A stretch of 64,000 nt of DNA from Bacteroidia bacterium (lineage in GTDB: Bacteria > Bacteroidota > Bacteroidia > UKL13-3), in NCBI GenBank assembly GCA_019695215.1, contig JAIBAK010000009.1, positions 13,389-77,388 of the forward strand, given 5' to 3'. Made by a program: the position numbers and the translations under genes. The notes under the pieces were generated by a model that did no database searches, was not told the DNA's origin, and saw only the letters and a program-made list of their open reading frames with translations. Shown piece by piece: positions 12,993 through 56,184 of this stretch; the first letter of the stretch is position 1, and the number at the start of each line of letters is the position of its first letter.

Positions 12993-13643
12993 ATGGAAAT
13001 GAGTAATGAACATATTGCGGCACTCCGTAAAGAATACCTGCTGAAAGAATTTGATGAAAGCCATTTAGTAGCCGACCCTTATAATCAGTTTAAGCTTTGG
13101 TTTAAAGAAGCCATTGAATCGGAAGTAAACGAACCCAATGCCATGATGCTGGCAACAGCTTCGGCAAACGGACAACCTCACGCCCGTATTGTACTGCTTA
13201 AAGGCTTTGATCACGAAGGACCCGTTTTTTTCACCAACTATCAAAGCGATAAGGGAGAACAGATAAAGGAAAATAATAAAGTAGCCCTTACTTTTTTCTG
13301 GCCCGAACTCGAGCGGCAGGTTCGTATTGAAGGAACCGCAGCGCTAATTCACCCCGAGCAATCGGATGAGTATTTTTACAGTCGCCCTATTGGCAGTCAG
13401 ATTGGTGCGCATGTGTCGCCCCAGAGTAAAGTAATTGTGAACAGGATGTTTTTAGAAGACCGCGTGAGGGAGTTTGAAAAAATATTTTCCGAACAACCTT
13501 TACTAAGGCCTGAACATTGGGGAGGTTATGTGGTAAAACCTCATTTATTTGAATTTTGGCAGGGACGCAGCAGCCGACTTCACGATCGTTTTTTATTTAC
13601 ACGTAAAGGTAAAGGATGGCAAATAGAACGACTTGCTCCCTAA
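12993..13643 (+). CDS. pdxH: pyridoxamine 5'-phosphate oxidase
   Basis: PHARIVLLKGFDHEGPVFFTNYQSDKG ... LERQVRIEG ... FWQGRSSRLHDRFLF, the canonical PdxH. Confidence 0.9.
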   Translation: MEMSNEHIAALRKEYLLKEFDESHLVADPYNQFKLWFKEAIESEVNEPNAMMLATASANGQPHARIVLLKGFDHEGPVFFTNYQSDKGEQIKENNKVALTFFWPELERQVRIEGTAALIHPEQSDEYFYSRPIGSQIGAHVSPQSKVIVNRMFLEDRVREFEKIFSEQPLLRPEHWGGYVVKPHLFEFWQGRSSRLHDRFLFTRKGKGWQIERLAP

Positions 13644-14764
13644 TTTTTTACCGGTGCAGGCATTCCCTGTTTATTGATAAAGAAAACATGATTCAGGTAT
13701 TGCACCTGTGCCAATCCAAAGCTAAAGGGCGAAACCCCGTCAAACTCGGGCTGAATAACCACCTTTCCTTTTTTATTCATAAAACCCCATCGGCCATGTT
13801 TACGTATAGCTGCCATTCCGTTTGAAAAACCCTGAGCTTCATCAAGAGTGAGCGGTACAAAAATGGCTCCTTTGCTATCTATAAATCCCCATTTTTTATT
13901 AATCATTACCGCTGCATACCCTTCGGAAAATGATTCGGCATAATCATACTCGGGTTTTATGATTACCTTTTGCTTAAGATTAATATATCCTATTTTATCT
14001 TTCATACGCACCGCAATTAATCCCTCGGCATAATCGGAGGCAAAAGTATATTTGGGTTTAATAAGTACTTTCCCTTTTGTATTCACAAAACCGGCCAATC
14101 CGCCTAAATCAATGCGGGCAACTCCGCCTGAAAACGGATAAATATAATCATACACAGCTGGCAGCAAAAATTTACCATGCGCATCTATCAGCCCGTATTT
14201 GTTTTTCATTTTTACACGCGCCACGCTATCCGCAAAATCTCCCGCATCAAAAAACTGACAGGGAATAACCAACGTACCGGTTTTATCCATATACCCGAAT
14301 TTAAAAACCAACATAGCGGTGCGTCCTTTAATTTTTACATCTTCCTGCACACTCACCACCGCTAGCCCGTTGTGAAACAATTGTGCATCATAAAAATCTA
14401 GAGGAACGTCAAGCACTTTAGCCCCTGTTTTGTCAATATAGTAGCGTTCGTTTTGGTCTCCGTGAATACGTGCCCATCCCTCCGAAAAAGCGGAGGCACT
14501 TTGGCAGGTAAGCGGCCCTATCACCACTTTACCTGCAGGGTCGATATAAAACTTCTTTCCCTCCCGCTCAACTAAAGCAAGGCCTTCGCTAAACTCATCG
14601 GCATATGAGTAAATGGTATCAATTGCCAAATGGCCTGTTTCATTCAGGTAGCCGTATTTTTTATTCCATTCAAAAGGAGTAAGGTTATTTCCCTGTGCCA
14701 TTAACCGCCCTGATAGGATGAGCAATGTTGATGTAACAAGAATGTACTTTTTGATATATCTCAA
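13640..14764 (-). CDS. WG-repeat (KWG) containing secreted protein
   Basis: Repeated WGFIDSKG / KYGLIDAHGKFLLP / IGYINLKQKVIIKPEYDY units. The longest ORF runs to 14845, but a TTG at 14764 gives a clean signal peptide (M)RYIKKYILVTSTLLILSGRLMAQ. The start is uncertain. Confidence 0.55.
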   Translation of the reverse strand: MRYIKKYILVTSTLLILSGRLMAQGNNLTPFEWNKKYGYLNETGHLAIDTIYSYADEFSEGLALVEREGKKFYIDPAGKVVIGPLTCQSASAFSEGWARIHGDQNERYYIDKTGAKVLDVPLDFYDAQLFHNGLAVVSVQEDVKIKGRTAMLVFKFGYMDKTGTLVIPCQFFDAGDFADSVARVKMKNKYGLIDAHGKFLLPAVYDYIYPFSGGVARIDLGGLAGFVNTKGKVLIKPKYTFASDYAEGLIAVRMKDKIGYINLKQKVIIKPEYDYAESFSEGYAAVMINKKWGFIDSKGAIFVPLTLDEAQGFSNGMAAIRKHGRWGFMNKKGKVVIQPEFDGVSPFSFGLAQVQYLNHVFFINKQGMPAPVKN

Positions 14765-14909
14765 AATAATGTAGTTAATATAGTAAGCAATAAACAAAAA
14801 TAACCTGTGCCGGCCATTTAATCCAAGGCACATTATCAACATCAACCGAAAACTGTTTGCTTTTATACCCTACCTTCGCCACAGGCATGATAGCCCTCTT
14901 TAATTCGGG

Positions 14910-15671
14910 TTAGGCATGAGGGGAGGTTGCGCGCAAAGGCAACCGTTTTTTTCGGAAAATGAATTCGAGCAAAACCCGTGAAGGTTTGGGTGTGCGCATG
15001 CGTTTTAACCCAAATTTTTCAATAGAATGTGCCGCAATATGCTGCACAGCCTCCTCTACCGAATCGGTGTACCGCACCAGGTTCAGGTCATTGGCATCAA
15101 TGGTTCCCTCGGCTACCATGGTATCGAGCATTTCCATCAGTTTTTTCCAGTAGTCTTTGCCAAACAATACCACCGGAAAATTTTCTACTTTATGCGTTTG
15201 AATCAGGGTGAGCGCCTCAAACATTTCATCCAGTGTGCCCATACCTCCGGGCATAATAACAAACCCATAGCTGTATTTAAACATCATAAACTTACGGATA
15301 AAAAAGTAATGAAAGGTTACCTCCTTATCTACATAGGGATTGGGCTTTTGTTCAAAAGGCAAAACGATATTGCAGCCCACCGAGCGGCCACCCGATTCAA
15401 AGGCTCCGCGATTGGCTGCTTCCATAATACCGGGGCCGCCACCGGTCATTACCGTAAACCCCAGTTTGGCCAACTGTTTTCCCATCTCACGGGCCTGCCC
15501 ATATTGCGGGTGATCTTCTTTAAAACGAGCCGAACCGAACACGGTGATGCACGGACCCACAAAATGCAATATTCTAAACCCTCTGATGGTTTCGGATAAA
15601 AAGCGGAACGTAAATTTTAACTCCTGCCATCGGGAGCGGGGACCCTCCAGGTAATAACTCTTTTTTGCCAT
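14910..15671 (-). CDS. LOG family / TIGR00730 Rossmann-fold nucleotide-binding protein
   Basis: VFGSARFKEDHPQYGQAREMGKQLAKLGFTVMTGGGPGIMEAANRGAFESGG and PGGMGTLDEMFEALTLIQT. The likely start MAKKSYY at 15671 is internal to the 296-aa ORF-track entry. Confidence 0.8.
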   Translation of the reverse strand: MAKKSYYLEGPRSRWQELKFTFRFLSETIRGFRILHFVGPCITVFGSARFKEDHPQYGQAREMGKQLAKLGFTVMTGGGPGIMEAANRGAFESGGRSVGCNIVLPFEQKPNPYVDKEVTFHYFFIRKFMMFKYSYGFVIMPGGMGTLDEMFEALTLIQTHKVENFPVVLFGKDYWKKLMEMLDTMVAEGTIDANDLNLVRYTDSVEEAVQHIAAHSIEKFGLKRMRTPKPSRVLLEFIFRKKRLPLRATSPHA

Positions 15672-15909
15672 GTACAAATAGAACGAAAAAAAACGTGACT
15701 TGAATATTACGCAAAGAAGAAATTTAGGATTCAATCCGACCGAACGGTTCAATGATTTTGAACCTACCGAAAACCATCCCCCTACCCCCTTTGCTTGCAC
15801 TCAACCCCACGCTGCAAGGGGGACTTAGAACATTTTTAGCACAAGACAATATGTTGGAGTGGAGAGTAAATCCTTAGCCGCAGGAAAAGGGTAGTTTAAT
15901 GGTAAAAAA

Positions 15910-16782
15910 TTAACCAAGAGAATCAATTAGTTCGGACGGAGTAATTGACAATATTTCCTTTTCTTTTATAAAAATATAATTCACAAGAAAAATAAAATTA
16001 TTAAGACTTAGAGGCAAAAGAAAATTACTTTCAAATATTTTTGTTAGCAATTCAATCCTGTCCACTTTAAAAAAATCTCTAATAAAGTCCTCCGTTAATA
16101 ATATTTCTAACTTCTCAGAAATGTCATAATCAGAAATACGGATTCTAAACTTTGTTCGAACCATTGGAATAAACTCCTTTGCTTTGTAGTGCCTAAAGCT
16201 TAACTGTTCAAAAAGTCTAAGGATTGCATACTCACTTGTCTCTAAGGAGGCTAATATCCCATTAAAACTCCTTTCCAATTCGCTATGATCCTGCCAATCT
16301 TTCTTACATTTATATCTTAAGTCATGATCTACTTCATGCCACCCTTCAGATAATACAGTTCTAAGTTGAATTTCAAAAGTGTCATCAACCATTTTACTTT
16401 TGATGATTTCCTTAAACTCCTTGTTAAAAGTAGTAGGAAGTTTAAATACTAAATTCAATTTGGTGGGAGCAAATTTAGTTGCCTCATTTTTGTCAATGGT
16501 TTCCTCAACAAATGGGAAAAACCCTTTGAGCCTGTTATAAACGATTGGAACATCATCAGAAAAATATAATATAACCCTTATTCCAATTGCATCTCTTATT
16601 AACTTCGTTTCCCCATCATAATAGTTTTTTCCCTTGGAAATTATTTTTGTATTCAAAGACTGATCTGTTTTTACTCGACTAAATATCCTAAAAATTAATC
16701 CGGCTCGAGAAATTTCATCTTCAATTAGTGTCGAAACATTTTTTGTAATTCTGTCGAGGTCTCTAGGTTGATACTTAATCAT
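15910..16782 (-). CDS. RelA/SpoT-domain (small alarmone synthetase / toxSAS-like) nucleotidyltransferase, second gene of the AT-rich island
   Basis: RIFSRVKTDQSLNTKIISKGK ... LIRDAIGIRVILYF and TFEIQLRTVLSEGWHEVDHDLRYK match the RSH synthetase fold motifs (R-x-K...GxR, E-x-Q-x-RT...W-x-E-x-x-H...YK). Its start overlaps the upstream gene in an ATGA overlap. Confidence 0.6.
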   Translation of the reverse strand: MIKYQPRDLDRITKNVSTLIEDEISRAGLIFRIFSRVKTDQSLNTKIISKGKNYYDGETKLIRDAIGIRVILYFSDDVPIVYNRLKGFFPFVEETIDKNEATKFAPTKLNLVFKLPTTFNKEFKEIIKSKMVDDTFEIQLRTVLSEGWHEVDHDLRYKCKKDWQDHSELERSFNGILASLETSEYAILRLFEQLSFRHYKAKEFIPMVRTKFRIRISDYDISEKLEILLTEDFIRDFFKVDRIELLTKIFESNFLLPLSLNNFIFLVNYIFIKEKEILSITPSELIDSLG

Positions 16783-18908
16783 AATTGTAATTCATCTCTT
16801 ATCTCCTGAATTTTATTGATATTAAAATTAATTTGCGACCCCCGAATCTGAATATAACCCTGATATTCCAGTTGATTAAGGGATTGCATAACAAGTTTCC
16901 TATTAATTGTATTCAATTTATGTAATAACTTAAGAATATGTTGAGACTTAGTGGAAGAAATTGACCATAATTCCTTAATAATAACTTCCTCAACCTCATC
17001 AAATAAATGATTATCTTGTTTAGAATGATAATCGTAATGTTCCAAAATTTCACATTCCTTTAATTTACTTTTTATGCTTGATATCTCTTTGGTAGAATCA
17101 AGATAAATTGAATTTTCGACTTTACAAGCATCAAAGGTACAATCAACGAAACTAACTCCATTAAATACAATAGGGTCAAAAATACAAGCTTTAAAATAAC
17201 AGTTTAGAAAAACAGAATTAGAAATACTATGTTTCAAAAAAGGAATATTAAAAAAAGTGGTGTCATAAACCGACAATTCATAATAATCTCTCTCCAGTTC
17301 CTCTCTAAGGATAATGTCATAATTAAAAATTGAAATAGGCTGGAGCTTATGAGTTACGCTATTAACTTTCTCCCATAGGCTTTGTTTATTTCTTTTATTT
17401 TGCACCTTGTATGCGGTACAAGCAAGGTCAAGCATATAATATGAATAATCCTTCTCGATCTTTTCAACAGGTGACTCACAGATTATTTCACCAATTAATA
17501 TTCCCAATACGAAATCATTGATAAATCCAATTTGACTTTCATCTCTCCCTTTCCTATCTAATAATGCGTGTGTGGCTAGTGTATCAACTAAATTCTCAAG
17601 AGTAGGTTTTTCGGCACCTGAGTATAAGGTCCTAGTGTATTCTAAAAGTTTACTATTTTGGTCTTTAATAATCTCCTTAAAAAACTCCTTAGATTCCACG
17701 GTTATATCAAATTCTAATAAAAGTTTTGCTACATTCTTAAAGATTTCGTACTGTTTCTCTTTTGTAATAATTAAGTTCTGGCGTTCCTTCTCTCTCTCAA
17801 GCATTCTATCAAAATACTGTTTAACTAATAAATCAGGACTAATGATCTGGCTCAAAAAATCTTCTCTTGAAATATTTTTTAGGTAAGTTAATAAAACTGG
17901 ATTAGCAATATATTGAATAGGAATATTTCTATCCTTGATTTGGTTAAACCTAGTAGTCCCAACCCAATCCTTAATCCTAGGCTCCTTTAAAGTTAACCTT
18001 GTAACATTGAACTTAGTATTCCATTTTGCAAGCCATTTATCAAACTCTAGTCCACTAAAAATTGCCGTCTTCCGTGTTGTGAGAATAATCTTTGCATTTT
18101 TTTCAAGGAGGTTTCCAATAGTATCAAGCATTGTTTCAATTTCGTCAAATGATTTTGACACATCACTATCTGAAATATTGACCTTTTCAAGAAGCTCATC
18201 AAAGCCATCAATTATTAGGGGGATTCTCCCATTTTTTATCTCGTGAATTACTAGCTCAGAATTAAGAGTTGGAAATTCTAAATCTATTTCATCTAAAAGA
18301 ATGTATCTAAATATTTTGGCTCCTCTATTCTTTGACAATTCAGTAAAAAGGGGGGAAACCAATTCACTTTTATTGTCAGTTAAAGTATTCAGTATCTCAT
18401 ATGCTGCACATGTTTTTCCGTAACCCGCTGCGGCTTCAATAATCAATAACTGGGGTGACCTCGTTGAGATAATTCCTTTTATCTTCTCTAACAATCCTAG
18501 ATTATTATTATTATTATCAAACTGCTCGTATACTTCAAAAGGACTTTCAATGTACTCGTACTTATTTCCGAGCAGTGCCTTTGTTTGTTTATTAACGAAA
18601 TCGTTGTATTTCTTCTTCAGTCGAAGAATAGTAAGGTCATAAGAAAAGAAACTCTTAAACAATTCGCGTTCTACATCTCTAATATCTTTAAAGCATTTAA
18701 CATAAGAAGCATAACCAAGTGCTGAATACCTAAGTTTTATTTTTTCTGCTCTTCCCTTAGTTTCTTCGTCTGAGACTAGTGGAACTATATCTACCCCAAA
18801 ATATCTACTTTTTTTAAACAAAAAACTTGCGATATTTTCTTCTTCATGCTTTACTTCAAATCCATATGTTTTGTAGGTAACTTCTAACTGTTTTAAATCT
18901 ATCTTCAT
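16779..18908 (-). CDS. NACHT-type STAND NTPase (bacterial NLR-like), first gene of the AT-rich island
   Basis: Walker A IIEAAAGYGKTCAA and Walker B LIIDGFDEL (the hhhhDGhDE NACHT signature), followed by ILTTRK. An unrecognised N-terminal domain of about 150 aa ends in an NNNNN tract. The C-terminus has Cys/Phe-rich pentapeptide-like repeats (NCYFKACIFDPIVFNGVSFVDCTFDACKV). Confidence 0.6.
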   Translation of the reverse strand: MKIDLKQLEVTYKTYGFEVKHEEENIASFLFKKSRYFGVDIVPLVSDEETKGRAEKIKLRYSALGYASYVKCFKDIRDVERELFKSFFSYDLTILRLKKKYNDFVNKQTKALLGNKYEYIESPFEVYEQFDNNNNNLGLLEKIKGIISTRSPQLLIIEAAAGYGKTCAAYEILNTLTDNKSELVSPLFTELSKNRGAKIFRYILLDEIDLEFPTLNSELVIHEIKNGRIPLIIDGFDELLEKVNISDSDVSKSFDEIETMLDTIGNLLEKNAKIILTTRKTAIFSGLEFDKWLAKWNTKFNVTRLTLKEPRIKDWVGTTRFNQIKDRNIPIQYIANPVLLTYLKNISREDFLSQIISPDLLVKQYFDRMLEREKERQNLIITKEKQYEIFKNVAKLLLEFDITVESKEFFKEIIKDQNSKLLEYTRTLYSGAEKPTLENLVDTLATHALLDRKGRDESQIGFINDFVLGILIGEIICESPVEKIEKDYSYYMLDLACTAYKVQNKRNKQSLWEKVNSVTHKLQPISIFNYDIILREELERDYYELSVYDTTFFNIPFLKHSISNSVFLNCYFKACIFDPIVFNGVSFVDCTFDACKVENSIYLDSTKEISSIKSKLKECEILEHYDYHSKQDNHLFDEVEEVIIKELWSISSTKSQHILKLLHKLNTINRKLVMQSLNQLEYQGYIQIRGSQINFNINKIQEIRDELQL

Positions 18909-19257
18909 AGCGTTTTAGACATCTAAACTATTATTGCTTTTTTCAATCAAACAAACGAAATATTAATCGAAATATTTAACAAAACTATTCACCCCAACTT
19001 TTTATAGCCGAATATGATAATCAAACCTCTTTAGGTTCTCAAATCTGAAATTATCTAATTTAAACACTTAAATTACTGCTCTAATGAATGCTTCATTGTC
19101 AAATATATGAATATCATTCAAAAAGTGCAAGAATATAACAGGTTATGAATCCAATAACCTTATTTTAGTAAGCCATTAAATTATGCCCAATGAAGTACAA
19201 TAAAACAAAATTTAATTCTATTAGAGTGGCAATCCACTTACTTAATAAAATTTAACT

Positions 19258-19298
19258 TTTAAAAATAAAAAAGCGCATCTTTTCTGAAGATGCGCTTT
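19258..19298 (-). terminator. rho-independent terminator downstream of hppD
   Basis: On the minus-strand RNA the stem AAGCGCAUCUU, loop CAGA, stem AAGAUGCGCUU are followed by UUUUUUAUUUUU (hairpin 19271-19298, A-run 19258-19270 on the + strand). Confidence 0.5.
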
Positions 19299-19318
19299 GG
19301 TGGTTATAGGCACAGAGG

Positions 19319-32968: not shown

Positions 32969-33547
32969 ATGAATACGATAAAGTCAAACCTGAATCCGGA
33001 ACTGTGGGTAGATTTATATGCCGATTCTCTTTTTCGCTATGCCTGTAAACGAATAAATCAGAGGGAAACCGCAAAAGAACTTGTTCAGGAAACTTTTTTG
33101 GCTGCACTTAAAGCACTGCCAAACTTTAAAGGAGCTATTTCAGAAAAAAACTGGCTCTATACAATTCTGAAAAATAAAATTATTGATTATTACCGAAAAA
33201 AAACTCCGGTTTACATTGAAGATTTTACAACAAACGAAAAAGAATACAGCTATAGTTTTGACGATTCGGGCCATTGGAAACAGGAAAAAAGTAAACCCGG
33301 ATGGATTGCAAACGAAAATGATGTTCTGCTGAATAAAGAGTTTATGCAGGTGCTTGCCAAATGCCGCCAAAAACTAAATGAAATACAAGACGCGGTTTTC
33401 TCCATGAAATATATTGACGAAACAAATTCGGAAGAGATATGTAAGGAACTAAACATAACAACGTCTAATTATTGGGTGATTATGCATAGGGCAAAACTCC
33501 TGCTGAGGGCGTGTATCCAAAAGAACTGGTTAAATGAAAAATTATAA
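32969..33547 (+). CDS. RNA polymerase ECF sigma factor (sigma-70 regions 2 and 4)
   Basis: ELVQETFLAALKAL and a C-terminal HTH (EEICKELNITTSNYWVIMHRAKLLL). Confidence 0.8.
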   Translation: MNTIKSNLNPELWVDLYADSLFRYACKRINQRETAKELVQETFLAALKALPNFKGAISEKNWLYTILKNKIIDYYRKKTPVYIEDFTTNEKEYSYSFDDSGHWKQEKSKPGWIANENDVLLNKEFMQVLAKCRQKLNEIQDAVFSMKYIDETNSEEICKELNITTSNYWVIMHRAKLLLRACIQKNWLNEKL

Positions 33548-33778
33548 ATGAGACTGAAAATTACCTGCAAAGAAGCCAGCCTGCTGATAATAAAAAGTGA
33601 GGAACATCACCTGGGCTACAGCGAAAAAATTAGGATGAATTTTCATTTGTTTATTTGCAAAATGTGCCGCTTATTCAAACGTCAAAATAAAATACTGGAT
33701 AAAGCTTTGGCAGTAAACAATACTCAGGAGCAATTAACCGTTTCGGAAAAAGAAAACCTTAAAGAATTAATAAAGTAA
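33548..33778 (+). CDS. putative zinc-finger (HxxxCxxC) anti-sigma factor
   Basis: The start abuts the sigma-factor stop. HLFICKMC matches the zf-HC2 H-x3-C-x2-C motif. Confidence 0.4.
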   Translation: MRLKITCKEASLLIIKSEEHHLGYSEKIRMNFHLFICKMCRLFKRQNKILDKALAVNNTQEQLTVSEKENLKELIK

Positions 33779-33850
33779 TGGTTGTTTTGTGCATACCCCG
33801 TTGCTTGCAAAGGCAATTACGAAACGACAAACTATCTCCTATATTTGTAT

Positions 33851-34729
33851 ATGGCAAAATCAAAAATTATTGGTAACAGCGAACTCATATTAAACAAAGA
33901 CGGATCTGTTTATCACCTGCATTTATTACCCGAAGATATTGCTGATACTATATTTTTGGTAGGTGACCCCGACAGAGTAAAAAAAGTATCGAAATTTTTC
34001 GACCGCATTGAGCTGAAAAAGCAAAAACGAGAATTCATCACACATACCGGATATGTAGGAAGAAAAAGATTCACGGTGCTTTCTACCGGCATTGGAACGG
34101 ATAATATAGATATTGTACTGAACGAACTGGATGCTTTAGCCAATATTGATTTAAAAGCACGTGTGCCGAATAAGAAAACAAAATCACTGCAGTTAATAAG
34201 GCTTGGTACCTCGGGAGCTTTGCAAAAAGACATTCCGGTAGATTCAATGGTGGTTTCAACACACGGGCTGGGTCTTGACGGACTTTTAAACTACTATATG
34301 CTTAATTATGGCAAAAAAGAAAAAGACTTACTCCAATCGTTTAATGAATATTTTCATGATGAACACCTTTTCCCCAAAACCTACCTTGCAAAAGCAGATA
34401 ACGAATTGCTTGTAAAACTGGGAAAGAATGAGATTTCAGGAATCACTGCTACCTGTTCGGGCTTTTACGGGCCACAGGGACGTACTGTAAGAACAACTCT
34501 GAAAAAGCCTGATTTGATTGATATACTTGCCGCCTTTCGTCACGGTAAAAGTCGTATTACCAATTTTGAGATGGAAACCTCGGCCATTTATGGTTTAGCT
34601 TCCGTTTTTGGCCACAGAGCCTGTTCGGTAAACGCCATTATTGCCAACCGGCCAAATAAAATTTTCAGCACTAAAGCCGATAAAAGTGTTGACGGGATGA
34701 TTAAAAAAGTTATCGATTTACTGGCATAG
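33851..34729 (+). CDS. nucleoside phosphorylase (PNP/UDP family)
   Basis: YHLHLLPEDIADTIFLVGDPDRVKKV ... VLSTGIGTDNIDIVLNEL ... RLGTSGAL ... FEMETSAIY. The start was chosen at ATG 33851 (MAKSK), internal to the ORF-track entry. Confidence 0.65.
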   Translation: MAKSKIIGNSELILNKDGSVYHLHLLPEDIADTIFLVGDPDRVKKVSKFFDRIELKKQKREFITHTGYVGRKRFTVLSTGIGTDNIDIVLNELDALANIDLKARVPNKKTKSLQLIRLGTSGALQKDIPVDSMVVSTHGLGLDGLLNYYMLNYGKKEKDLLQSFNEYFHDEHLFPKTYLAKADNELLVKLGKNEISGITATCSGFYGPQGRTVRTTLKKPDLIDILAAFRHGKSRITNFEMETSAIYGLASVFGHRACSVNAIIANRPNKIFSTKADKSVDGMIKKVIDLLA

Positions 34730-54460: not shown

Positions 54461-55265
54461 TCAGTTTCTGTTCTGGGGCCACTCGTATTTCCACTCTCAG
54501 CCCGTTTCCGGGTGATGAAATCCAATCAATACTTCCGCCTATCATTTGCACCCTGCTCTCAATATTCCGTAACCCCAAACCTTTCTTTTTGCCGCCCGTT
54601 GCAAAGTCTTTCGGATTAAATCCTGTTCCGTTATCCTCATAGGTATAAATTAAACCGGCATCAGAAACAGTTACTCCTAATTTAATTTTTGTTGCTGAAG
54701 CATATTTTATGGTATTATTAACCAGCTCCTGACTTATTCTGAACAATGCCAGTTCCGCTTCGGCCGGTATGGCGGCCTCACCTGCCTCATAAAAAAATGT
54801 AGTTTCCGTTGTGTTGCTTTCAAAATTACTGAGCAATTGAGCCAGCGCTTCTTTTAATCCAAAATCGAGCAATACTCCCGGCAACAGGCTGTGCGAAATG
54901 GAACGTACTTCTTGTATAGACTGTGTTGTGAGGGTTAAGCTCTGAGCAACCATAGAATCGATTTCTTCCTGATTTTTATTTGCCCGCTTTATTCCGTTAA
55001 TATTTAACTTAATTGCCGAAAGCATTTGGCCAACACTATCGTGTAACTCCCGTGCAAAATACTGCCGCTCCTTTTCCTGAGTATTAATTATAGCATTTAG
55101 TAATTCCTGCTGCCGCTCAATCTCCATTTGCTTTAGCATAAGCTTATAACTCTCCTTACGCTTTAAATACAAAACAACAAACGAAACAATGAATCCAATA
55201 AGGATAATCATTAACAAGGTTCCCCCAATAACGAAATAACTTATCGAATTGATTTTTTCAGACAT
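54447..55265 (-). CDS. sensor histidine kinase (HisKA_3 plus HATPase_c) with single N-terminal TM
   Basis: RELHDSVGQMLSAIKL (H-box), NTIKYASAT (N-box), GTGFNP, GLGLRNIESR (G-boxes). Confidence 0.8.
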   Translation of the reverse strand: MSEKINSISYFVIGGTLLMIILIGFIVSFVVLYLKRKESYKLMLKQMEIERQQELLNAIINTQEKERQYFARELHDSVGQMLSAIKLNINGIKRANKNQEEIDSMVAQSLTLTTQSIQEVRSISHSLLPGVLLDFGLKEALAQLLSNFESNTTETTFFYEAGEAAIPAEAELALFRISQELVNNTIKYASATKIKLGVTVSDAGLIYTYEDNGTGFNPKDFATGGKKKGLGLRNIESRVQMIGGSIDWISSPGNGLRVEIRVAPEQKLNEEN

Positions 55266-55870
55266 AAAAAAGCTGCCCCAAAAATTATATTGGTAAAAAT
55301 GTTAACTAACCCATGAAATGAATACAATTCTATTGGTAATTTCCTAACATACTTAGAGTAGTCATAGAATGAAAAAATAAAAAAATTAACCGAAAAGTAA
55401 ATGAATACTCCAGTAATAATCAGTGAATCACTTCGAAATAGCCCAAAATTATCCTGCTCTAATAACTTATATATGGTAAGCCCACTCCAAAAACACAACC
55501 ATATACATAAAATAGAAATGGGAATAGAATAAAAACGCATGATATTATCCCCCGTCATGGAATAGCAAATAGAAAAAAAACAAAAGAGAATTATGCCTAA
55601 ATACTGAATCTTATTAATAAATGGCTCCCACTTGTAAAATTCTGAAAAAAGATATGTATAAATAATAAAATCCATTAGACTATGTGCCTGAATAATAAAT
55701 AAATTATTTGTACGTGTGGCTGCCAAAACCAACGACCAGAATTCAGTAAACACGGTGACAATACAAAAAATAAAAAATGCCCTGTAGGGTGCATTTAGTT
55801 TGCGCACTACAACCAGCCCGCAAACGGCAGGTATAAGGGAAGAATAAATGGTCAATATGCCAATTGACAC
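55241..55870 (-). CDS. polytopic membrane protein (about 6 TM), probable separate sensor module of the downstream kinase
   Basis: Entirely hydrophobic helices. Its 3' end overlaps the kinase start. Confidence 0.45.
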   Translation of the reverse strand: MSIGILTIYSSLIPAVCGLVVVRKLNAPYRAFFIFCIVTVFTEFWSLVLAATRTNNLFIIQAHSLMDFIIYTYLFSEFYKWEPFINKIQYLGIILFCFFSICYSMTGDNIMRFYSIPISILCIWLCFWSGLTIYKLLEQDNFGLFRSDSLIITGVFIYFSVNFFIFSFYDYSKYVRKLPIELYSFHGLVNIFTNIIFGAAFLCLKKSIR

Positions 55871-56184
55871 TAGCTATTTAATGGATTATTAACGCTACAA
55901 TTAGTAGGACATGGTAAGCCAAAATCGGCTATTACCCCGCGTGTCATATCATTTTCTGAAGAATCGGCACCCACAAATACCAAGGTTGGCTGATTAGTAG
56001 TATCATTAAAAGCGTAGTAAACTCTGATGCCCATACAATCGGGCTGAGCCAGAATTTGATTTAATAAATCGCGGCCCATAAAAATCGCATTGACTGCATC
56101 CTGACCTTTTGCCCGGTAATTGGCGGTTAATGTGGCTGCTTCGTTTAGGGTGATGGCCGAACCCTCTGTTCCGTTAAATGGCAT
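55870..56184 (-). CDS. hypothetical 104-aa soluble protein, first gene of the two-component operon
   Basis: ATG at 56184 (MPFNGTEGSAITLNEAATL ...). The upstream part of the ORF-track entry runs over the repeat hairpins and is probably not translated. Confidence 0.35.
   Translation of the reverse strand: MPFNGTEGSAITLNEAATLTANYRAKGQDAVNAIFMGRDLLNQILAQPDCMGIRVYYAFNDTTNQPTLVFVGADSSENDMTRGVIADFGLPCPTNCSVNNPLNS

Follow-up and report, generated by a model that had tools for sequence, protein, structure and literature searches.

The window analysed here is a whole stretch of 64,000 nt from a Bacteroidia bacterium (UKL13-3; assembly GCA_019695215.1, contig JAIBAK010000009.1:13,389-77,388, forward strand), and our subject is a cassette of two genes on its minus strand: a gene for a 709-aa NACHT protein (16779..18908) followed by a gene for a 290-aa protein of RelA/SpoT type (15910..16782), which is called the partner below. 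Both genes were taken from the list of open reading frames (ORFs), and the stop codon of the NACHT gene and the start codon of the partner gene share the letters ATGA, giving a junction of -4 nt. Downstream on the minus strand lies a gene of the LOG family (PF03641), the real start of which is the Met of MAKKSYY at 15671, and upstream of the cassette lie hppD and then the gene for homogentisate dioxygenase (HGD). GC content over 15750-19250 is 0.27-0.34 against 0.40-0.47 on both sides, and at 1-kb resolution the cassette makes up the three lowest-GC kilobases in the window (0.30-0.32, compared with about 0.42). An initial annotation of this DNA had reported two minus-strand ORFs with an ATGA overlap between the LOG gene and hppD, in a region more AT-rich than its neighbours, and the ORF list and windowed GC values bear out these statements.

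For the 709-aa protein an AlphaFold2 model was made with 25 homologs (mean pLDDT 84.8), and conservation was counted for both proteins over 46 unique family members, reaching down to about 27% identity. In the predicted NACHT P-loop nucleoside triphosphatase (NTPase) domain (aa 150-310; 17979..18461, minus strand), which was assigned from motifs and the model, Walker A is AAAGYGKT (18411-18434, minus strand), Walker B is LIIDGFDEL (18192-18218, minus strand) and sensor 1 is the TTR of ILTTRK (aa 277-279, minus strand). Residues G164, K165, T166, D234, G235, F236, D237, E238 and R279 are invariant (46/46). The Walker B signature D[GAS]hDE, which Koonin and Aravind are said to have given for NACHT proteins in 2000, is present as D234-G-F-D-E238. 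The same signature defines the NACHT clade in Kibby et al. (2023, bioRxiv 10.1101/2022.07.19.500537). When the model was compared with PDB by Foldseek, NOD2, NLRC4, NLRP3, NLRP7/9/14 and NAIP5 filled the top 28 matches (E 5e-10 to 3e-6), with NOD2, NLRC4 and NLRP3 at the head (E 5e-10 to 1e-7), and plant and animal AP-ATPases and ORC/Cdc6 ranked below the NLRs. Helical and winged-helix domains of the NACHT module (aa 311-465; 17514..17978, minus strand) follow in the secondary structure of the model and take part in long alignments to NLR NACHT modules; H447 in this winged helix is invariant (46/46) and, judged by position rather than by superposition, may be equivalent to H443 of NLRC4. The Pfam NACHT profile PF05729 scores 22.1 bits for the window protein, below its gathering score of 26.7, several homologs carry precomputed PF05729 matches, and the family is divergent as judged by sequence profiles. 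By its motifs and predicted fold, the 709-aa protein is a NACHT STAND NTPase, which agrees with the initial annotation.

The N-terminal domain, which that annotation had called unrecognised, does have a family: aa 8-126 (18531..18887, minus strand) match PF22723, NA-iREase2, at E 7e-23 and 81.7 bits (cutoff 27) over 118 of the 119 profile positions, and the model folds aa 1-126 as an α/β domain like that of restriction endonucleases (REases). PF22723 is the "NACHT-associated inactive restriction endonuclease 2" family, labelled inactive by the Pfam curators. An acidic residue at position 40 is kept in 46/46 members and acidic positions 78 and 80 persist, while the position of the Lys in (D/E)xK is V/I42 and the family alignment has no conserved Asp on the preceding strand. 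The active site appears degenerate, a pattern that fits the curators' label without proving inactivity, and the domain is a candidate docking platform for the partner. The poly-Asn tract said to close this domain lies in a non-conserved, disordered linker of low model confidence at about aa 129-134.

Beyond a helical spacer (aa 466-538 in the model), a pentapeptide-repeat β-helix with a Cys/Phe ladder is predicted at aa 539-620 (17049..17294, minus strand) from profile matches and the model. Pfam pentapeptide matches at aa 554-606 are weak (18.6 bits, below the gathering score of 38), the family profile of this region matches Qnr (E 2e-5), MfpA and SV2 luminal domains, and the model has a short β-strand ladder over aa 540-620. 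A pentapeptide-like C-terminal region, as given in the initial annotation, is present. Two domains had escaped it, namely the C-terminal helical domain of the partner (aa 166-290) and a winged helix-turn-helix (wHTH)-like domain at the NACHT protein's C-terminal end (aa 638-707; 16788..16997, minus strand), which is predicted from an H-H-H-E-E-H pattern in the model and gave no match in a Pfam scan. Mean pairwise identity is highest in the NTPase domain (57%), falls to 28% in the β-helix and is lowest in the C-terminal wHTH (26%), although the length of the protein is nearly constant (701-714 aa). Because the β-helix and the wHTH are the least conserved parts and the NTPase domain the most conserved, which is the expected pattern, the C-terminus may be taken as the recognition surface, with the pentapeptide β-helix as the putative sensor surface.

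In the partner, PF04607 RelA_SpoT is matched at E 2e-13 with 51.1 bits against a cutoff of 27, and its AlphaFold2 model (pLDDT 86.3) divides into a synthetase domain (aa 1-165) and, C-terminal to it, an extra all-α domain of 125 aa (aa 166-290). The synthetase catalytic domain proper (aa 31-165; 16288..16692, minus strand) carries the motifs RxKxxxSxxxK, DxxGxR, ExQxRT and WH..HD.RYK. Residues R36, K38, S42, K46, D64, G67, R69, E137, Q139 and R141 are found in 46/46 members and T142 in 45/46, and W148, H149, H153, D154, R156, Y157 and K158 are conserved in 45-46/46. The three RelA/SpoT motifs quoted by the initial annotation, like AAAGYGKT, LIIDGFDEL and ILTTRK, are present as quoted and kept in 45-46/46 relatives. 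RelQ, RelP and Rel are the top fold matches, and on profile and model together the partner has the RelA/SpoT-type small-alarmone-synthetase fold that had been claimed for it. Since all synthetase motifs are conserved, the enzyme is expected to be active. When the family profile was run against PDB, RelP/RelQ structures were matched at 3e-11 to 2e-9; at E up to 1 the matches were confined to RelP, RelQ and related sequences, with neither CapRel (7ZTB) nor Tas1 (6OX6) among them. The NCBIfam equivalog of RelQ/RelP, GTPPhKinYjbM, scored 25 bits, below its cutoff of 320, and the structural ranking of fold matches does not discriminate among acceptor substrates. The all-α C-terminal domain (15913..16287, minus strand), which is family-specific and was delimited on the model, matches nothing and may be regulatory or NACHT-binding; the length of the partner is also nearly constant (285-301 aa).

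The partner module, consisting of the synthetase and C-terminal helical domains, also forms the N-terminal half of a separate family of 600-730-aa proteins. A profile search with the module gave 234 representatives at E up to 1e-30, and the longer family, the sources of which are gut Lachnospiraceae, Clostridia and Bacteroides metagenome-assembled genomes (MAGs), comprises at least 681 clusters (P0296, P0399, P0431 and relatives; L149-L155). Its genes stand alone with no NACHT gene alongside, and a MarR-type gene lies directly 3' of four of them (L150-L153). The extension of about 330 aa has no Pfam match and is unrelated to the NACHT protein, and single members bearing the partner module carry NUDIX, HD_4, CYTH or AAA_28 in its place. 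This hints that the module may be under cis control in that lineage and under trans control by NACHT here, and the 600-730-aa proteins may be a cis-regulated (CapRel-like) relative. A Rosetta-stone fusion of partner and NACHT protein was sought and none was found, the longer module-bearing proteins having the unrelated C-terminal extension.

The two families occur together throughout their range. At 90% identity the NACHT family comprises at least 1460 clusters, and the partner family comprises about 887. A species-level scan with one genome per species gave 49 NACHT loci, 47 of which are informative in that the contig reaches far enough, and the partner gene is immediately downstream of the NACHT gene in 45 of these 47. 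The loci span at least four phyla, with members in Bacteroidota, Gammaproteobacteria (Pseudomonas, Enterobacter, Photobacterium, Alteromonadaceae, Kangiella and Neptuniibacter), Desulfobacterota (Desulfobacterium) and Deinococcota (Deinococcales). One exception (L033, 5998-8698) has a RAYT/IS200-like transposase gene in place of the NACHT 3' end and has lost the partner. The other (L052, 5959-9231, a Prevotellaceae MAG) has a solitary 714-aa NACHT gene, downstream of which a small gene and a PIN-domain gene resemble a toxin-antitoxin (TA) pair, and could be a case of partner loss or effector swap. A search from the partner side found an NA-iREase2 NACHT gene upstream in Vibrio parahaemolyticus, the partner of which is indexed in 334 blocks of the collection, in Pseudoalteromonas and in two divergent metagenomic members. 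At the junctions the two genes overlap by 4, 1 or 8 nt or lie no more than 17 nt apart (-4 in 16 loci and -1 in 11), and such overlapping or nearly abutting genes suggest translational coupling. The pairwise identities of NACHT protein and partner rise and fall together (Mantel r 0.85, 0/999 permutations). The NACHT protein and the partner form one obligate unit.

This unit has moved between genomes. The GC content of the cassette is below that of its flanks in 51/51 loci with a mean difference of -0.086 (0.40 vs 0.64 in Pseudomonas sp. 2FG and 0.32 vs 0.50 in Enterobacter), and the flanks differ at every locus, those of the window being shared by no other. Neither cassette gene was found at any of 80 metagenomic hppD loci. 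Three close relatives, with hppD 85-89% identical, have the order HGD-hppD-LOG with an hppD-LOG gap of only 133-189 bp, in which a terminator and a spacer of 20-40 nt precede LOG, where the window has about 3.65 kb. The cassette was horizontally acquired and inserted between hppD and LOG and is not a syntenic core locus; the acquired, inserted pair of the initial annotation is confirmed by the AT-richness of all 51 loci and by the empty junction in the three relatives. In the empty-site relatives the intergenic DNA has diverged too far for the borders of the insertion to be mapped at base level, and a search of the window found no terminal repeats (direct or inverted) beside the copy there, no target-site duplication, and no tRNA or integrase.

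Copies elsewhere lie on six plasmids (Klebsiella IncFIB/FII, Pantoea and Yersinia), where recombinases and insertion sequence (IS) elements of the IS3 type adjoin them, and in RefSeq they are labelled as hypothetical or NACHT domain-containing protein and as RelA/SpoT domain-containing protein. On a K. pneumoniae IncFIB/FII plasmid (NZ_CP043587.1; L147, 9379-10467), the pair adjoins IS3 and a tyrosine recombinase and is about 3 kb away from pifC, which encodes the repressor of the F-type phage-exclusion locus pif. A megablast search with the Klebsiella copy gave no E. coli match. Several copies are decaying: besides L033 with its transposase, an Arcticibacter locus (L020, 3232-8001) has the first 84 aa of the NACHT protein placed 2.4 kb upstream of the remainder, a Photobacterium locus (L047, 5986-8116) has a frameshift near aa 80, and in L057 (6582-8983) both genes are fragmented, which could be a long-read assembly error. 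None of 50,697 phage genomes contains the cassette, and it is rare in IMG/VR, where four contigs carry it. On these contigs (L060-L063), listed as uncultivated virus genomes, there are genes for a MobA/VirD2 relaxase, an ankyrin-repeat protein, a DUF4928 fragment, an AAA_21/AAA_15 ATPase and a reverse transcriptase; the contigs resemble a mobilisable element bearing a defence cluster rather than a phage, and phage carriage was rejected on both grounds. In L063 (1-14524) the neighbours are the relaxase, the DUF4928 fragment, the AAA_21 ATPase and the reverse transcriptase.

Other loci also place the cassette among defence genes. In a Saprospiraceae MAG (JADKGO010000010.1; L004, 416-12218), the cassette and an ISL3 transposase are inserted between hsdS and hsdR of a type I restriction-modification (R-M) operon that also holds a PIN-domain gene, forming a nested defence island. 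L144 and L145 adjoin a type IIG methyltransferase-endonuclease, an integrase and an IS66 element, and L146 is flanked by an integrase, RadC and a type ISP enzyme. A census of the two nearest genes on each side, in which PADLOC family-hits at E up to 1e-10 were counted, gave 136 hits in 150 cassette neighbours and 11 in 112 control neighbours from hppD loci, with type I REase, HerA, AriA, GajA, PtuA, Old, AbiL and SoFic among the families (PARIS-, Gabija- and Septu-type ATPases included). The association of the cassette with defence genes is real but moderate.

We consider it probable that the cassette is a horizontally mobile two-gene conflict or anti-phage system of the bNACHT class, in which the N-terminal effector slot of the NACHT protein has decayed and a RelA/SpoT effector is supplied in trans. 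Such a sensor with a trans-acting effector would fit the pairing, the co-divergence, the variable C-terminus, the intact catalytic sites and the defence and mobile neighbours, while what is said here of defence, of signalling direction, of docking surfaces and of the enzyme's substrate is modelled on what is known of NLRs and toxSAS. In the proposed scheme, the NACHT protein would rest in a closed, ADP-bound state until its variable pentapeptide β-helix and C-terminal winged helix recognise an infection cue; NTP exchange and NACHT oligomerisation would then cluster the N-terminal NA-iREase2 domains, and this platform would recruit and activate, or de-repress, the partner, probably through the C-terminal helical domain of the latter. 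The partner would move pyrophosphate from ATP to a purine nucleotide, yielding (p)ppGpp or (p)ppApp, or to the 3' end of tRNA, and growth and translation would be arrested and the infection aborted. That the NACHT oligomer docks the partner on the decayed REase domain and activates the RelA/SpoT pyrophosphokinase allosterically, in a widespread anti-phage system, is a more specific proposal, which we hold only tentatively. The possibilities raised at the outset, namely that the larger protein is not a NACHT protein, that the smaller one lacks the RelA/SpoT fold, or that the pair is a conserved syntenic core locus, were each examined and do not agree with the findings above.

Several points weigh against this reading. 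No shared adaptor domain joins the NACHT protein and the partner, and their physical interaction is something we infer. PADLOC-DB v2.0.0, which includes Avs, CBASS and others, gave no meaningful match for either protein, the best matches of the NACHT protein being confined to the P-loop (BrxC, E 3e-4; Cas3e, E 0.014) and the partner having none, and NCBIfam gave nothing above its cutoffs for either. In the literature no experimental phenotype was found for any member of the NA-iREase2 family. The neighbour census is crude, with redundant family-hits per protein and phylogenetically clustered controls, and most immediate neighbours are ordinary metabolic genes. The absence from phage genomes and rarity in IMG/VR are neutral and give no support from prophage hot spots. 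The extra C-terminal wHTH is equally compatible with a DNA-binding regulator. Finally, the partner is closer to housekeeping RelQ, RelP and Rel than to the solved toxSAS structures, and because both its fold and its sequence show this resemblance, its toxicity is an assumption.

The tight bicistronic layout with overlapping genes, the carriage on conjugative plasmids and the location beside IS elements and recombinases would also suit an addiction module of the TA kind, in which a toxSAS-type toxin is neutralised by the NACHT protein as a large ATP-dependent antitoxin or regulator, and which maintains itself without sensing infection. The partner was never seen without NACHT in the contexts examined, and toxSAS, the antitoxins of which are very diverse, are well established as TA toxins (Jimmy et al., 2020, PMC7229694). 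We think this unlikely, although not negligible: a 700-aa STAND NTPase of four domains with invariant motifs and fast-evolving C-terminal repeats exceeds what neutralisation needs, the regulator-first order and the long leader resemble sensor-effector systems as much as TA systems, and a solitary NACHT gene exists (L052) whereas a solitary toxin was not found. Many TA systems are defence systems, so that this alternative overlaps with the defence reading and is hard to separate from it.

STAND NTPases with DNA-binding domains, such as MalT, AfsR and GutR, are known regulators. AfsR and GutR are cited in a 2026 survey of STAND proteins. The predicted C-terminal wHTH-like domain would allow the NACHT protein to be a transcription factor of this kind with the partner supplying or answering an alarmone signal in host physiology, and the structural proximity of the partner to housekeeping (p)ppGpp synthetases and the many metabolic neighbours point the same way; this regulatory alternative is improbable in our judgement. 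Against it stand a sporadic occurrence, close relatives having an empty site, a GC content below that of the flanks in all 51 loci, carriage on plasmids, insertion inside an R-M operon and frequent decay, all of which are typical of accessory conflict genes. There are no conserved target genes alongside, because the flanks differ at every locus, and conservation is lowest in the wHTH, which would be unusual if this domain bound an operator. Nucleotide second messengers are common in CBASS, Thoeris and type III CRISPR, and since such logic is frequent in defence, the polarity could be reversed: the RelA/SpoT enzyme would be the sensor and signal maker by its C-terminal helical domain, and its product would activate the NACHT protein as executor, acting through the REase-like domain or by titrating a host target with a DNA-mimicking pentapeptide helix. 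The partner C-terminal domain recurs in the stand-alone 600-730-aa relatives, suggesting an autonomous regulatory unit, DNA mimicry and gyrase inhibition are known from pentapeptide-repeat proteins (Qnr and MfpA being among the matches), and acidic positions 40, 78 and 80 persist in the REase-like domain. However, this domain is without the Lys of (D/E)xK and the conserved first Asp and belongs to a family that Pfam curators call inactive, the most variable regions are in the NACHT C-terminus and not in the partner, and characterised STAND/NLR systems use the NTPase as the sensor switch and an N-terminal or partner domain as the effector (Kibby et al., 2023). Reversed polarity is therefore the least probable of the alternatives, and very doubtful, and defence with the NACHT protein as sensor is the reading retained here.

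The non-coding sequence on both sides of the cassette needs some correction. The 410-bp non-coding stretch that had been described upstream (18909-19318) exists, but it includes the intrinsic terminator of hppD at 19270-19298; the first 50 nt belong to the terminator, and about 360 bp are left as an AT-rich 5' leader or promoter region (18909..19269, minus strand), which was delimited on the sequence and lies downstream of that terminator. The leader contains a tandem 12-nt direct repeat, AATATTTCG(A/T)TT, with the copies AATATTTCGATT and AATATTTCGTTT at 18953-18976 on the minus strand, 45-68 nt 5' of the NACHT start codon, and this repeat could be a promoter or operator element. An Rfam search of the 360-nt leader gave no family above threshold, sub-threshold matches falling only on the hppD terminator, and a riboswitch or other known RNA in the leader was rejected on this result. 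At the other end, the 3' flank from the partner stop to the LOG start (15672..15909, minus strand) is non-coding by its sequence and includes the hairpin GGTTCAA-TGATT-TTGAACC, which the initial annotation had put at 15737-15755 and taken as the island border. The hairpin actually lies at 15746-15764, 9 nt away, and was rejected as a border: perfect 7-bp hairpins in the window occur at chance frequency (41 observed vs 28 +/- 6 in shuffles), and the flank folds no better than shuffled sequence (z -0.45). A GC-rich imperfect palindrome (CCCCCTTGCAGCGTGGGG...GGGGG) at 15779-15825 is unique within the window and has AT-rich surroundings. The right-hand limit of the insertion is somewhere within 15672..15909.

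Elsewhere in the window, the gene adjoining LOG (13640-14845, minus strand) encodes seven WG-containing β repeats (PF14903, E 4e-88), and its listed start (TTG, 401 aa) is probably too far upstream. After the cassette, the kilobases of next-lowest GC content are 55001-56000 (0.336) and 33001-34000 (0.350), against about 0.40.

No experimentally studied system has linked bacterial NLR-related proteins with toxic RelA/SpoT enzymes, and the cassette joins both. Since the sensor and the effector are on separate proteins, activation should be dissectable both genetically and biochemically (docking surface, oligomerisation and product), and the carriers include tractable hosts such as V. parahaemolyticus, Enterobacter, Pseudomonas and an IncF Klebsiella plasmid. 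The fused NLR-RelA_SpoT proteins of fungi and protists are hard to dissect, and their output has been guessed at since 2014. The cassette also illustrates how a REase effector domain can decay to a probable adaptor while the effector role shifts to a neighbouring gene. If the proposed reading is true, this would be the first NLR-type receptor signalling through a free-standing nucleotide or tRNA pyrophosphokinase, it would form a widespread anti-phage system in Vibrio parahaemolyticus, Klebsiella plasmids, Pseudomonas and many Bacteroidota, and it would open to experiment the RelA_SpoT effector domains of fungal NLRs, which are still unexplained. If the function is not defence, the cassette is still an unannotated mobile module that escapes current defence-finding tools.

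Among known systems, Avs/AVAST proteins combine an effector, an NTPase and a C-terminal sensor, are mobile and associated with defence islands, and recognise conserved phage proteins directly. The 709-aa protein shares their STAND NTPase logic; however, Avs belong to non-NACHT STAND clades with fused nuclease, Sir2 or other effectors, and PADLOC gives no Avs match for this protein. To our knowledge, the pair has no name in DefenseFinder or PADLOC. In EAD-coupled systems, an NTPase core deploys effectors encoded by neighbouring genes, and RelA is listed among the rare ones (Kaur et al., 2020, PMC7159879). Those systems have an effector-associated domain (EAD) shared by both proteins, and the NACHT protein and the partner have none: hhalign of the two family alignments found no shared domain (probability 0.04), and because the families share no domain, EAD coupling by a shared adaptor is impossible here. 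The toxSAS FaRel, FaRel2, PhRel, PhRel2 and CapRel are growth-arresting toxins (Jimmy et al., 2020, PMC7229694; for CapRelSJ46, PMC9712102). The cassette differs from these and from Tas1, an effector of a type VI secretion system, in that they have a small antitoxin or a fused pseudo-zinc-finger regulator whereas its regulator is a 700-aa NACHT NTPase, and in that the partner by sequence matches only RelP/RelQ among solved structures and not CapRel or Tas1.

The closest relatives in architecture are fused proteins. RelA_SpoT-NACHT-WD40 proteins are known among fungal NLRs, where RelA_SpoT occupies the place of an N-terminal effector with a role that is only speculated (Dyrka et al., 2014, PMC4986451), and a Tox-RelA+NACHT protein occurs in Reticulomyxa. 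They couple the same two modules, with NACHT as the switch and a RelA/SpoT nucleotidyltransferase in the place of the effector, and none of them has a known product or phenotype. They are single polypeptides, while the cassette has a separate coupled gene, an extra C-terminal domain and a degenerate REase in the effector slot. According to the searchable text and tables of Kibby et al. (2023, bioRxiv 10.1101/2022.07.19.500537), bNACHT proteins are anti-phage and need the Lys of Walker A, and Table S1 lists the architecture NA-iREase2+NACHT+Pentapeptide in clade 15, with hosts in Vibrio cholerae, Paenibacillus, Ignavibacteriales, Acinetobacter, Pseudomonas and Sphingobacterium. By the same text and tables, other clade-15 members have a TIR or phospholipase effector in the N-terminal slot, the tested clade-15 systems are bNACHT09, 34 and 69, and the supplementary discussion counts alarmone synthetases among the effector domains fused to NACHT. 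The 709-aa protein and clade 15 have the same architecture, the same Pfam N-terminal domain and the same NACHT signature motifs. The tested bNACHTs, as far as these tables describe them, are mostly single genes with a fused effector or none, whereas there are two genes here; NA-iREase2 members were not found among the 27 tested proteins, nor is a conserved downstream RelA/SpoT gene mentioned, in that searchable text and those tables.

The claim of the initial annotation that the system is undescribed has therefore to be narrowed, in that the architecture stands in clade 15 of Kibby et al. and fusions of the two modules in fungi (PMC4986451), while the conserved operonic pair was not found described. 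Literature on NA-iREase2, on bNACHT with RelA and on toxSAS or alarmones with NACHT gave no description or test of the pair, and the text of the 2026 STAND survey does not mention a pair of NACHT and RelA/SpoT. The components and the category of system are already known, and the apparently undescribed part is their conserved two-gene form.

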